From Angustibacter luteus (GTDB lineage Bacteria > Actinomycetota > Actinomycetes > Actinomycetales > Angustibacteraceae), in contig NZ_BAABFP010000002.1 in NCBI RefSeq assembly GCF_039541115.1, positions 744,001-808,000 of the forward strand: DNA of 64,000 nt, in the 5' to 3' direction. Positions within the stretch are counted from its first letter, which is position 1; every line of letters starts with the position of its first letter. The position numbers were made by a program, and so were the translations under genes. The notes under the pieces are model-generated. The model was not told the origin of the DNA. It saw only the letters and a list, made by a program, of their open reading frames with translations, and did not search any database. Positions 60,018 through 64,000 of this stretch are shown in pieces.

Positions 60018-61091
60018 ATGCGCATCTCGAAGAAGACGACGATCGTCGCCTGGATGACCGCGGCTGCTGCGGTGACAGCCGTCGGCGTGGGGGGCACGCA
60101 GGCATCGGCGGCGTCCGGCAACGGCAAGGCCAAGCTCGCTCCGACGCACAGCAAGGCCCTCGCGGCCTCGAGCTCGCCGGACTACAAGGCGGCGCGGGCC
60201 GCGAAGGCCCCGGTCGCCACCAAGGCGTCGAAGGCGGCCCTGGCCACCGTGCAGGATCGCATCGCGAAGTACGTCGCGAAGAACGGCACCAGGTACACGT
60301 TCGGTTCGTACTCCGACCCGAAGACCGGCGCGCTCGTGCTCGACACCAACGCCCCGGCCAGCCTGGTGAAGTCGCTGACCAACCTGAAGACCGCCACCGC
60401 CGCCAAGAGCGTCGCCGGCCTGACCAGCGTCAAGGTCACGACCCACAAGGTCACGACGAACGACGCCTACCACCGCCGCGACGACGTCCCGGCCTTCTAC
60501 GGCGGCGGCGGACTGTCGGCCGAGGGCTTCCTGTGCTCGACCGGCTACACCGTGCAGAGCTCGACCGGAGCCCGGTGGATGGTCACCGCAGGTCACTGCT
60601 TCTCCAACGGCGCGAGCGTCAAGACCGAGTCCGGCGCGAACGTCGAGGGCACCGTGACGGCGCGCACGCTGGCCTCGCTCGGCGGCGGCCCCATCGACGT
60701 CGAGTTCCTCGCCGGCAAGTCGTACGCCGGCCGGATCTTCACCGGTGGCGTGACCAGCAGCACCAGCATCCCCGTGGTGGGTTCGGGCGCCGCGTACGTC
60801 GGCTACACGGACTACTGCCACAGCGGTCGGACCACCGGTGAGCAGTGCGGTCACACCGCGACCAGCGTCACCGCCCAGGTCTGCACCGCGACCGGCTGCA
60901 AGTCCCCGGTGATCGCCTACACCGGTGGCACCGTCCAGCAGGGCGGCGACTCCGGCGGCACGTTCTACGCCAAGAACTCCACCGGCGCGTGGATCCGCGG
61001 GCACGTCATCGCGGGCAACTCGGTCACCGGCTACATCGAGCCGTACACCGAGATCACCAAGCGCTGGGCCGTCACCGCCTCGCTGGGCTGA
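60018..61091 (+). CDS. Secreted S1 (alpha-lytic/streptogrisin-like) serine protease with pro-region
   Basis: RBS AAGGAGG; signal peptide; CSTGY, VTAGHC, CHSGRTTG, GDSGG. Confidence 0.88.
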   Translation: MRISKKTTIVAWMTAAAAVTAVGVGGTQASAASGNGKAKLAPTHSKALAASSSPDYKAARAAKAPVATKASKAALATVQDRIAKYVAKNGTRYTFGSYSDPKTGALVLDTNAPASLVKSLTNLKTATAAKSVAGLTSVKVTTHKVTTNDAYHRRDDVPAFYGGGGLSAEGFLCSTGYTVQSSTGARWMVTAGHCFSNGASVKTESGANVEGTVTARTLASLGGGPIDVEFLAGKSYAGRIFTGGVTSSTSIPVVGSGAAYVGYTDYCHSGRTTGEQCGHTATSVTAQVCTATGCKSPVIAYTGGTVQQGGDSGGTFYAKNSTGAWIRGHVIAGNSVTGYIEPYTEITKRWAVTASLG

Positions 61092-61130
61092 TCAACAGAT
61101 GGGCTGATCACCAGATGGGCTGATCACCAG
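61084..61130. repeat. 16-bp direct repeat TGGGCTGATCA(A/C)CAGA, three copies, starting over the protease stop
   Basis: Direct reading; third copy is 15 nt. Confidence 0.75.
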
Positions 61131-61189: not shown

Positions 61190-61336
61190 TCAGACGTCGT
61201 AGTCGACGACGACGGCGGCGTGGTCGCTCCACCGCTCGGCGTACGTCGCGGCCCGCCCGGCCTCGGCCTTCACTGCTCGGCCGGCCAGGGTGGCCGTCGC
61301 CAGCTGGTAGTCGATCCGCCAGCCCGAGTCGTTGTC
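61190..61336 (-). pseudogene. xth: Orphan 3' fragment (48 aa) of exodeoxyribonuclease III
   Basis: DNDSGWRIDYQLAT..AATYAERWSDHAAVVVDYDV*, carrying the ExoIII GWRIDY and SDH motifs; nothing ExoIII-like upstream of 61337. Confidence 0.85.
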
Positions 61337-61539
61337 CAGGGATCGCCGCTATATGTACACAACCACTACGAACGCGGCTGCCTGACCAGCATTTATCACG
61401 CTGTGTCACCAAACCTCGCGAACGCCGATAGATCGGCACACCAGTCACATCAGCACCACCGGAGCGCCTCGCCCGCTCGGTCTGACTCCGGCCAAACCTT
61501 GGCCCGACACGGCAGTTCTCGATCGCAATCGTCCGTGCA

Positions 61540-61567: not shown

Positions 61568-62359
61568 ATGAGCGCCGGTCAGCTACTGGGTCGCGCGACG
61601 TCGAATACGTCTCGCGTTCTGGCAGGTATCCGCGACGCACTGGGACAGCAGGCGCCAGACCGCCTGGCATTGATGCTCTACGGCAGCGTCGCTCGCGGAA
61701 CGCAGGGCGACGACTCTGACATCGACGTCCTCGAATTGGTCTCCGGCGATGCAGCGACGTATCAGGTCGGAACCATCAACGTGACGCAGTACCGCCCTGC
61801 CCACCTCAGGGCTCTTGCCGCGCAGGGCAGCTTGTTCGTGTTGCATCTACGCACGGATGGCGTTGTCATCGAGGATCGGTTCGGACTGCTCACTCGGACA
61901 CTGGAAGCTTATGAGCGGCCGCTCACATACGCCCCAATATGGGACCAACTGGCGACCGCAGCAGGCGTGCTCGACGTCTCCGCTCACGATGTCCGCGGAT
62001 ACCTCCGCGGACTTGGCCGTCTCGGTGTCTATATCGCGCGCACCGCCGCATACCTTCGCAGCGTCGAGGCGGGCGAGGTCAACTTCGACATCGGCTTGCT
62101 CAGCCAACAACTCGACCAGCCTGGGCTCGCCGACGCAGTTGCTCTTCGCCGTCAGGCGACGTTCTCGCTCTCCGATATCGCAAAGCTGCGTCATGAGATC
62201 GAGCGCATCGTGCCAAACGTGCCAAGCGGCCCTATCGAATCCGTTGAGTCGTACGCCATCGCACATGCAGACCATGGGGAACTGGCAATGCTCATGGCCA
62301 CGGTGTTGACCGATGAAGACGAGCTGGAGTACAGCGCACTCACCCTCCCCCCGTTCTGA
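61568..62359 (+). CDS. Pol-beta superfamily nucleotidyltransferase (possibly HalB-like), 263 aa
   Basis: LYGSVARG..DSDIDVL (GS plus DxD); GSLFVLHLRTDG; helical C-terminal half ending EDELEYSALTLPPF. Confidence 0.8.
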   Translation: MSAGQLLGRATSNTSRVLAGIRDALGQQAPDRLALMLYGSVARGTQGDDSDIDVLELVSGDAATYQVGTINVTQYRPAHLRALAAQGSLFVLHLRTDGVVIEDRFGLLTRTLEAYERPLTYAPIWDQLATAAGVLDVSAHDVRGYLRGLGRLGVYIARTAAYLRSVEAGEVNFDIGLLSQQLDQPGLADAVALRRQATFSLSDIAKLRHEIERIVPNVPSGPIESVESYAIAHADHGELAMLMATVLTDEDELEYSALTLPPF

Positions 62360-63036
62360 TGCGTGAACGGATCGCGGTCGTCGGTGACGTCCACGGCAAC
62401 GCTCGGGCGTTGGCGCGAGCCTTCGAGTGGCTTGAGACTTGGGACGGATTGGTGATCTTCGTCGGGGATTACGTAAACCGTGGCCCGGCATCGCGCGAAG
62501 TCGTCGATCACTTGATCCTCGCCAAGGACGCACTCGGCGAGCGCTTGGTGCTCCTGCGTGGCAATCACGACCAAGTGCTGCTGGACTTCATTTCGGGCGA
62601 GAGCCCACGCCGACTGCTTTCGCATGGCGGCCTGACCACCGTCAGCAGCTACCTGAAGGGTACGGAGGCTCAGGCGAGCATTGAGACTTTTCGCGAAACC
62701 TTTCCCGACGGGCATCTACGTCTCCTAGGCGACACAGGGACGCACTTCGAGACCGACGAGATGCTGGTGTCGCATGCCGGCTATAACCCTGACAGACCAA
62801 CAAGTAGGAGGTCAGAAGACTTGGCCTTGGGACGGCATCATGGGATCTTTTCCCGAGGCGCTACTGCACCAAAGGCGCTCATCATCTGCGGCCACTACAT
62901 CCAGAGGGGGATGAAGCCGTTCGAGTCGAGGAACCTGATATGCCTTGACACCGGAAGCGGCACGACCGCGGGGGCTCCGCTGACGTTGGTCACGCTGCCA
63001 GATCGCAACTTCTACCAATTCTACGGAGAGACATGA
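62359..63036 (+). CDS. Calcineurin-like metallophosphoesterase (PPP/ApaH-like)
   Basis: GDVHG, GDYVNRG, LRGNHD, SHAG, CGHY, LDTG; TGATG coupling. Confidence 0.9.
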   Translation: MRERIAVVGDVHGNARALARAFEWLETWDGLVIFVGDYVNRGPASREVVDHLILAKDALGERLVLLRGNHDQVLLDFISGESPRRLLSHGGLTTVSSYLKGTEAQASIETFRETFPDGHLRLLGDTGTHFETDEMLVSHAGYNPDRPTSRRSEDLALGRHHGIFSRGATAPKALIICGHYIQRGMKPFESRNLICLDTGSGTTAGAPLTLVTLPDRNFYQFYGET

Positions 63037-64000
63037 CGGATCTGAAGGAGGCATGTCGGGACCTTTTCGCGGCGCTCGATGAGGGCAAGCGCGTAATCTG
63101 CATCCACTATAGTTGCGAAAACTTCCACGATGTCACCGACCGCCCTGTTGCGGTGAGCGCCATCGCTGTTTCCGAACTGACCGATGCAACAGGGGGACGA
63201 GAGTCAACCGTCTTCTCCATCGCCAATTCTTCAGCAAACCAAGACCCGGTCGAACGCGAAAAGGAGATGTTTGCCAGATTCTTCGAGTATGCACGCACAC
63301 GCCCCGATGCGTTCTGGGTTCACTGGAATATGAACAACGCCACCTACGGCTTTTCTGCACTGATCTCTCGATACCGTTACCTGTTGGGCTCTGAACCCAA
63401 CAGTCCGTGGCAGAGCAACCGTCTCTTCGATCTTGACTCACTAGTGGGCGCCAGGTACGGCGATCAGTTTGCCAAGCACCCAAAACTCCTGAGTCTTTGC
63501 TCGTTGAATGGGTATTTCCTCTCGTTCTTCAAGGCGGGCCGTGACGAAGCAAAGGCGTTTTCGGACGGCGACTACGGCTTGTGCGAGAGGTCCACTGCGG
63601 AGAAATCACACCTTCTAGCATCTATTTTGACTGACTTCCGTGCGGGATCGCTGCGTACACAAAACTCAGTCGGTTCACTGCACTTTGCATCCGAGCCCCT
63701 AGACGCTGTGAAGGTCGTGCTGGCCATAGGTGATCGCTTTCGATATGTGGAACGGCAACTGCTCCGTCGCCACGCCTCTCGCGACACGCTTAAGATTCAA
63801 GACGAGTACGATGCACAGGATTTGCTCAGGGCGCTCCTTGCCGTGTTCTTCGAGGATATTCGCCCTGAAGAGGTCGCACCAAAGCTTGGCGGCGCCTCCT
63901 CACGCATCGACTTCATTCTTCCCGACTACGCGCTCGCACTAGAGCTGAAGTACGCGCGTAGCAGCATGACTTCAGCTTCACTCGGCGAGGAACTCATCGT
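63033..64000 (+). CDS. Degenerate DnaQ-like exonuclease-fold domain fused to a DpnII/MboI-like PD-(D/E)xK nuclease; partial, more than 322 aa
   Basis: Translated by hand, no stop to the window end; ATGA overlap; ICIHYSCE..EKEMFARFF..WVHWNM..YGFSAL..RY..LFDL; IQDEYDAQDLLRALL..FEDIRPEE..SSRIDFIL..ALELK. Confidence 0.8.
   Translation, partial: MTDLKEACRDLFAALDEGKRVICIHYSCENFHDVTDRPVAVSAIAVSELTDATGGRESTVFSIANSSANQDPVEREKEMFARFFEYARTRPDAFWVHWNMNNATYGFSALISRYRYLLGSEPNSPWQSNRLFDLDSLVGARYGDQFAKHPKLLSLCSLNGYFLSFFKAGRDEAKAFSDGDYGLCERSTAEKSHLLASILTDFRAGSLRTQNSVGSLHFASEPLDAVKVVLAIGDRFRYVERQLLRRHASRDTLKIQDEYDAQDLLRALLAVFFEDIRPEEVAPKLGGASSRIDFILPDYALALELKYARSSMTSASLGEELI

Follow-up and report, generated by a model that had tools for sequence, protein, structure and literature searches.

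A HalB-like nucleotidyltransferase and a metallophosphoesterase share an operon with a pseudo-DEDD nuclease effector in Angustibacter luteus

At the right-hand end of a 64,000-nt stretch of the Angustibacter luteus genome (hereafter the window), a gene encodes a protein in which a domain reminiscent of proofreading exonucleases, with altered acidic residues, precedes a nuclease domain. This raises the question of what such a domain is for if it no longer cuts, and how it could control the nuclease to which it is attached. The original prediction, made from the sequence of the window, was that a dead exonuclease fold serves as a sensor, possibly of an oligonucleotide made by a nearby nucleotidyltransferase (NTase), and gates a DpnII/MboI-like DNase. 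We have examined these proposals using profile searches, structural models, and surveys of related loci.

Architecture of the effector

The effector gene and its two domains are laid out as follows, the genome placing the end of the reading frame beyond the window end by which it is cut:

63033..64000, continuing to window-equivalent 64163, + strand: effector gene, 376 aa (open reading frame list and genome)
63081..63650, + strand: pseudo-DEDD domain, effector residues 17-206 (fold of the proofreading domain of family-B polymerases, PolB)
63720..64000, cut by the window end, + strand: PD-(D/E)xK nuclease domain, effector residues 230-371 (PF18742)

The motifs on which the original prediction was built can all be found in the translation, ICIHYSCE (residues 22-29), EKEMFARFF (76-84), WVHWNMNNATYGF (95-107), LFDL (131-134), and PKLLSL (150-155) in the N-terminal domain, and DEYDAQD (257-263), RIDF (291-294), and ELK (304-306) in the nuclease domain. 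Pfam recognizes PF18742 alone in the effector (residues 230-371, E 8.5e-42, 142.7 bits against a cut-off of 27); it returned nothing for residues 1-216 at E 1, and neither PADLOC nor NCBIfam produced a match to the N-terminal domain at E 0.1. Among 8000 candidates scored, 251 were homologues of the effector, and the best 120 of these 251 all have PF18742.

To describe the N-terminal domain in three dimensions, we used AlphaFold models of the whole effector (45-row alignment, pLDDT 89.3) and of residues 1-210 (11 rows, pLDDT 90.5). Both VIA-align and Foldseek match the models to DnaQ-family exonucleases, in agreement with the DnaQ/PolB-type fold that had been proposed. In VIA-align, the whole-effector model superposes on Pyrococcus PolB 4flt (Z 15.6, rmsd 3.0, 170 aligned), and the N-domain model alone gives almost the same values with PolB exonuclease domains (Z 15.1, rmsd 3.1, 173 aligned). 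The best Foldseek matches of the effector model are to RNase T (E 8.5e-5), and ESM Atlas features also point toward a DnaQ-family exonuclease fold for the N-domain, for which a sequence search against the PDB gave nothing real.

To locate the catalytic positions, we built a profile of the domain from 161 sequences and aligned it to DEDD proteins that occur naturally in genomes. The profile aligned to four PF10108 proteins (the four of five fetched loci that passed a motif filter) with a probability of 93.7% and an E-value of 3e-8, and gave no significant alignment to RNase_H_2 (two proteins) or PolB (three proteins). In the profile-profile alignment, the PF10108 motif WNGGGFD pairs with WNMNNATYG, which puts G106 in the place of the ExoII Asp, and YCETD pairs with STAEK, which puts S187 and K191 in the places of the ExoIII Tyr and Asp, respectively. 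The assignment of H25 and S27 to the ExoI Asp and Glu, which comes from the strand register and an RNase_H_2 alignment of 0.9% probability, is less firm than those of ExoII and ExoIII. The DEDD acidic residues are thus altered as originally claimed, and the change extends to all four metal ligands, replaced by H25, S27, G106, and K191, the last of these, an Asp-to-Lys change in ExoIII, being absent from the earlier account. Among the 161 homologues, acidic residues occupy these positions in 0, 0, 0, and 1, respectively. The domain has the RNase H-like DnaQ fold of an active DEDD/DnaQ exonuclease and lacks its four metal-binding acids, and from this loss we infer that it is catalytically dead.

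The conserved residues of the pseudo-DEDD domain are H25, Y26, E76, W98, R113, E172, S187, and K191, most of which are near-invariant among the 161 homologues (H25 in 160, Y26 in 160, R113 in 161, S187 in 159, K191 in 158, and E172 in 157). Since the ligands are lost and other residues are near-invariant, the canonical two-metal site is gone, yet the pocket is under strong selection. Such conservation suits catalysis as much as binding, and H25, Y26, E172, S187, and K191 could conceivably form a new catalytic site that processes an oligomer or another nucleic acid, in which case the domain would not be dead. E172 is acidic where the PF10108 proteins have Val, and Maelstrom, which has a DEDD fold without the DEDD residues and is among the Foldseek matches of the effector model, keeps RNase activity. 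Nevertheless, we find a new active site quite improbable, because all four canonical metal ligands are lost and because the domain occurs in fusions with effectors of at least six unrelated types (described below), which is the pattern of a sensor.

As for the C-terminal domain, an intact PD-(D/E)xK site, as originally proposed, is predicted from the above-cut-off match to PF18742 and from the D293-E304-K306 triad, which is invariant in 45 of 45 sequences. The designation DpnII/MboI-like did not survive and is just the Pfam label, the nearest solved relative being a non-specific DNase. That relative, the only solved one for this domain, is EcbAgaN (PDB 23wq, E 6.8e-5 and 1.2e-6), and PADLOC correspondingly matches the domain to Aga_Helical-REase, a model of Argonaute-associated REases (E 3.1e-24). 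EcbAgaN is described as a non-specific DNase that is activated by a partner and leads to abortive infection (PMC10620215). The Pfam name might suggest a DpnII-like restriction enzyme that recognizes a sequence or a methylation state, in which the N-terminal domain would confer specificity, but we regard this as barely credible. Besides the kinship with a non-specific DNase, GATC is not depleted in the genome (24361 sites seen versus 24920 expected), the 5-kb island that harbors the effector has no methyltransferase gene (Pfam, PADLOC, and NCBIfam recognize no DNA methyltransferase among its five genes), and the partners conserved in 10 relatives are an NTase and a phosphoesterase.

Operon, partner enzymes, and genomic island

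The effector is the last gene of an operon with the order NTase, phosphoesterase, effector, in which consecutive genes overlap, the NTase stop and phosphoesterase start in a TGATG junction and the phosphoesterase stop and effector start in ATGA. The partner genes and the borders of the island are:

61190..61345, - strand: orphan 3' end of xth (exonuclease III), left edge of the low-GC island (aligns with the 3' end of intact xth)
61568..62359, + strand: HalB-like NTase, GS/DxD intact (263 aa if read from the ATG at 61568, the true start being uncertain)
62330..62332, + strand: codon of Tyr255 of the NTase, candidate priming tyrosine, 9 residues from the C terminus (conservation)
62359..63036, + strand: PPP/calcineurin-like metallophosphoesterase, 225 aa (PF00149, E 1.3e-14)
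Window-equivalent 66264-67070 (L001:10264-11070), - strand: intact xth (alignment with the orphan end)

The best NCBIfam family for the NTase is HalB (NF051895, 109.6 bits, E 1.6e-31), and HalB structures are its best PDB matches (9dbh, E 1.6e-12, or 1.7e-21 by profile). Because the 109.6 bits lie under the equivalog cut-off of 190, the protein is a relative of HalB, not an NCBI-named HalB; it also has a weak match to MntA (24.9 bits, E 1.4e-5). The catalytic motifs (GS, DxD) are invariant in 11 of 11 sequences, and so is Tyr255, which is found in at least 90% of a set of 62; of 120 homologues, 107 carry a Tyr among their final 12 residues. Tyr255 would be the equivalent of the HalB priming Tyr; the alignments to 9dbh stop before the C terminus, short of this residue. 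According to published descriptions, HalB makes Tyr-primed poly-dA; its oligomers keep the HalA channel repressed, and the repression ends when they are degraded by a phage 5'-3' exonuclease (PMC13434031, PMC13276650, PMC13275509).

The metallophosphoesterase is a conserved third part of the module that the original prediction had omitted. Its motifs GDxHG, GDxxxRG, GNH, H, GH, and DTG are invariant in 11 of 11 sequences. The best PDB match is RLPH2 (5vjv, E 4e-21), which is described in the literature as a tyrosine phosphatase; it is ahead of ApaH-like and other PPP enzymes by just a few orders of E-value, and the match does not establish phosphotyrosine specificity.

The three genes lie within a 5-kb island of 52-69% GC in a genome of 72% GC. 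Judging by its sequence, this island is inserted into the 3' end of xth and brought a replacement 3' end with it; GC3 is 0.92 in the orphan end and in the 5' part of xth, and 0.52 in the present last 52 codons. No integrase was recognized among the five island genes. Directly 3' of the effector is a Schlafen AlbA_2 gene (PF04326; window-equivalent 64251-65465, + strand, L001:8251-9465), probably a separate defense gene, and further on a 208-aa ORF (window-equivalent 65597-66223, + strand, L001:9597-10223) with no Pfam, PADLOC, or NCBIfam match. Both were ruled out as parts of the system since neither has a tblastn match in 10 related loci. On the left, short direct repeats with a GGGCTGATCA-type unit occupy window positions 61091-61130, just 3' of the stop codon of the upstream gene, which encodes a secreted protease-like protein.

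The cassette, its exchangeable effector, and the domain at large

A GTDB scan yielded 78 loci, 10 of which include the N-domain, and all 10 present the NTase, phosphoesterase, and effector in this order (one ends at a contig edge inside the effector). The other 68 have the nuclease domain without a pseudo-DEDD domain, and since none of them has the NTase (0 of 68, with a phosphoesterase in 1 of 68), the NTase tracks the sensor domain. The longest contig has equal size in the effector and NTase match lists in 31 of 120 cases, a mere proxy for co-location. The spread of the domain is patchy, as in defense genes: none of 400 other genomes of its own class (0 of 400) contained it. Two other groups gave 1 match among 400 genomes scored and 1 among 301, a sampling too thin to reveal further contexts; one of these matches comes from an unpublished genome and supports no conclusion here. 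When viral sequences were scanned with the REase-branch domain or with the NTase, no loci of the system emerged.

When metagenomes were scanned with the NTase motif GSLFVLHLR alone, we obtained 32 loci. A pseudo-DEDD effector adjoins the NTase in 17 of them (among the 17 are two duplicate pairs, an effector divided between two ORFs, another truncated at the contig end, and two located upstream), while in five a HalA homologue, or its C-terminal end, lies upstream and replaces the effector; the remaining loci end before any effector (four) or are broken or without one (six). The effector slot is therefore exchangeable. Of the 17 effector loci, 15 also have the phosphoesterase (one contig ends first, and L096 has none between NTase and effector), as do three of the five HalA-linked loci (L102, L104, and L107). 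Two of the upstream proteins were scanned with the NCBIfam HalA model and score 212 bits (L103) and 195 bits (L107) against a cut-off of 250, and that of L107 matches PDB 9nyi with E 8e-21. In an unrooted tree, the HalA-linked NTases, in which the C-terminal Tyr is also found, form one clade (100/99) among the pseudo-DEDD-linked NTases, with moderate support (92/91). The window NTase is 30-35% identical to HalA-linked NTases (four compared) and 27-42% identical to other pseudo-DEDD-linked ones (eight compared). An AU test (p 1e-27) was set aside because rows of unknown context, near-copies of labeled rows, force rejection.

The HalA-linked and pseudo-DEDD-linked sister loci indicate that one NTase-phosphoesterase cassette serves two unrelated effectors. 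HalA is gated by the NTase product, and the sharing of the cassette is our main ground for thinking that the pseudo-DEDD domain reads that product.

The surveyed loci also include other arrangements. With their HalA-HalB-metallophosphoesterase content, L102, L104, and L107 have one gene more than the two-gene Hailong of reviews. The NTase and phosphoesterase occur without a pseudo-DEDD effector in L106 and in L092, L093, and L094, the last three being Rhodococcus plasmids on which the HalB-like cassette, also without HalA, neighbors a NACHT protein or, alternatively, a convergent DUF4062/TPR gene and a divergent DEDD (RNase_T) exonuclease. An AbiGi-like gene (L118:3794-4687) lies directly upstream of another three-gene module, which fits a defense-island setting.

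The analysis establishes the anatomy of the effector, its operon, the loss of the metal ligands, and the exchange of effectors. We are highly confident that the three genes are functionally coupled, and the module probably has an anti-phage role in which the effector is the toxic arm. That the NTase product is the ligand of the pseudo-DEDD effector seems fairly likely, and we have good confidence that the ligand is inhibitory. Our preferred explanation, in which we have slightly more doubt than confidence, is a guard of the Hailong type with a DNase in place of the ion channel, where a DNA oligomer made by the NTase and lodged in the dead pocket would keep the DNase off until a phage destroys the oligomer. 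By homology, the HalB-like NTase would make a tyrosine-primed single-stranded DNA oligomer, probably oligo-dA, which the phosphoesterase may free or trim, for example by cutting the phosphotyrosine link or a terminal phosphate. The oligomer would then pass to the pseudo-DEDD domain, the ancestral job of which was presumably to hold a single-stranded 3' end, and the His and Lys that replace metal ligands could allow binding without cutting. By analogy with Hailong and EcbAgaN, the C-terminal PD-(D/E)xK domain would be off as long as the oligomer is bound; on the same analogy, its removal by a phage exonuclease or single-stranded DNA-binding protein would lead to non-specific DNA degradation and death of the infected cell. 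Counting against this explanation are the NTase-free forms of the domain (see below), the loci in which the cassette lacks this effector, the missing phosphoesterase of L096, the NTase score under the HalB cut-off, and the domain's want of any HalA match in sequence or fold.

The polarity could also be that of CBASS, with infection turning the NTase on, the product activating the DNase via the pseudo-DEDD pocket, and the phosphoesterase clearing stray signal. A signal-degrading phosphoesterase is the natural partner of an activating messenger, which counts for this alternative, and stand-alone forms of the domain (see below) suggest that it can be activated by binding. However, the NTase and phosphoesterase are also found with HalA homologues (L102, L104, and L107), where the product is expected to repress, and published accounts have HalB acting constitutively to yield an inhibitory product (PMC13434031), so that we judge an activating signal improbable.

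Returning to an inhibitory oligomer, we asked whether a contact between the NTase and the pseudo-DEDD domain is predicted. The complex scored 0.50 (0.23, 0.50, and 0.50 in individual runs), versus 0.00 for the best of three controls, with runs agreeing in at least 93% of contacts and partner pLDDT of at least 89. The mark used for such predictions is reached by 116 of 157 solved pairs and 2 of 215 mismatched pairs, and passes at 0.60 or under comprise 18 of the 157 solved pairs and both passing mismatches. PDB searches returned solved HalB structures and no complex with a pseudo-DEDD domain. The predicted contact is weakly supported and slightly lifts the odds of our preferred explanation.

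The pseudo-DEDD domain is not confined to this module. In a profile search, 932 clusters at 50% identity proved to carry it. The best 150 matches consist of 17 nuclease fusions, 91 proteins in which a single predicted membrane helix follows the domain, 8 with long tails, and 34 with short tails and no helix, many of which are fragments. The long tails are TIR_2 (five), CAP12-TIR, Abi_C, and HEPN_Swt1, and a further search added a fusion to an AAA ATPase. The sensor role originally proposed finds support in this variety, since the same domain is fused to REase, TIR, CAP12-TIR, HEPN, Abi_C, and ATPase moieties and to a single membrane helix. In a quick tree, 22 nuclease-fused domains and four TIR fusions are apart from the short forms (SH-aLRT 92, not starred), and the REase-fused domains have residues of their own (D36, D135, and E190), a division that also speaks for our preferred explanation. 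Together, tree and fusions support the reading of the domain as a modular sensor, as far as sequences can tell. Judged by their pseudo-DEDD domain, the four TIR fusions that join the nuclease-fused, NTase-linked branch in this tree are P0139, P0140, P0191, and P0202.

The short form corresponds to PHROG 8766, annotated "unknown function" (E 2e-26). We inspected 63 short-form loci (9 of 13 plasmid matches, 2 of 18 phage matches, 1 genome locus, and 51 from IMG/VR, many of them near-copies), with flanks of at least 1.4 kb on both sides in 47 and under 1.4 kb on one side in 16, and an NTase, phosphoesterase, or nuclease is nearby in none. Streptococcal prophages have the gene next to the repressor and integrase. 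These stand-alone proteins with one membrane helix (L082, L164, and L165-L215, and on plasmids L080, L081, L083, and L158-L163) make PHROG 8766 a candidate single-gene defense system.

Pocket residues H25, Y26, E76, R113, E172, S187, and K191 are equally conserved in forms without an NTase. As the commonest form of the domain has no NTase nearby in the loci inspected, the product of this enzyme is not the sole ligand of the family, and the stand-alone forms, with the same pocket and none of the partners nearby, must read another cue. Consequently, the link to an NTase product stands in part: it has grown stronger than the original prediction could make it, as the NTase is HalB-like and the effector fills the HalA slot of sister loci, but the link is not family-wide. 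It could then be argued that in the effector, too, the domain senses a phage cue directly, either DNA ends that arise in the course of infection or a phage protein, while the NTase and phosphoesterase restrain the effector by other means. Protein contact would be one such means, and a reversible nucleotidylation of the kind found in MNT-HEPN toxin-antitoxin pairs another. The dominance of short forms (91 of the best 150 matches), several of them in prophage lysogeny regions, the identity of the pocket in NTase-linked and NTase-free groups, the weak MntA match, and a weak complex score that fits protein contact equally well all speak in favor of direct sensing. We nevertheless think it unlikely because the NTase resembles HalB far more than MntA, keeps the C-terminal Tyr, and has sister enzymes serving HalA, whose ligand is the oligomer.

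A broader picture can also be drawn, which we consider rather doubtful. In it, the pseudo-DEDD domain would be a widespread immune receptor for single-stranded DNA ends, a module of the class of SAVED, CARF, and WYL. Its stand-alone forms on prophages and plasmids would respond to oligonucleotides of host or phage origin by triggering a membrane helix, TIR, HEPN, or Abi_C effector, and one branch would have been captured by a HalB-phosphoesterase cassette with its self-made ligand, Hailong being a plug-in signal source for unrelated receptors.

Comparison with known systems

The N-domain shares its fold with the proofreading domain of family-B polymerases (Z 15) and its motif order with PF10108 exonucleases (93.7%), but it is without all four metal-binding acids and is fused to toxic effectors. 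HalA is not among its sequence or fold matches; a weak likeness in fold may exist. With PHROG 8766, the effector has in common the domain and its conserved pocket; unlike the effector, PHROG 8766 stands alone, with no NTase or phosphoesterase, and has a membrane helix instead of a nuclease. Although hundreds of clusters contain the domain, joined to toxic domains that are unrelated to one another, no Pfam, PADLOC, or NCBIfam model covers it; identification of the ligand would define a new sensor family and assign PHROG 8766 a function.

The nuclease is homologous to the PD-(D/E)xK domain of EcbAgaN (23wq, E 1.2e-6), the non-specific, partner-switched nuclease associated with long-B Argonaute (BPAN). 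The alignment is limited to this domain, which is here fused to a pseudo-DEDD domain; the island has no Argonaute, none of its five genes matching Argonaute models in Pfam, PADLOC, or NCBIfam.

The closest comparison is with Hailong, which reviews describe as a two-gene system with an ion-channel effector, in which long poly-dA chains are probably made into short oligomers by cellular enzymes (PMC13434031, PMC13276650). The conserved phosphoesterase is a direct candidate for this shortening. Our search, which covered titles and the starts of abstracts and left most subscription papers outside, found no publication on the NTase-phosphoesterase-pseudo-DEDD arrangement. The Hailong study of Tan et al. 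2025 reportedly includes a survey of alternative effectors and may already list HalB beside nuclease or phosphatase genes.

The module shares with Hailong (HalA and HalB; PDB 9dbh and 9nyi) an NTase of the HalB family that retains its motifs as well as a C-terminal Tyr and whose sister enzymes adjoin HalA homologues. It differs in that the effector is a soluble pseudo-DEDD-DNase fusion unrelated to HalA, the metallophosphoesterase is a third gene, and the NTase is under the HalB cut-off. On our preferred explanation the module would operate as Hailong does; it is not a strict member, as an adjacent HalA channel is absent (the effector has no NCBIfam match at E 0.1, the HalA model included). 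If a soluble DNase is indeed gated by a HalB product, the inhibitory-DNA guard of Hailong would prove to be modular, and reconstituting it with this DNase would be far simpler than with a membrane channel.
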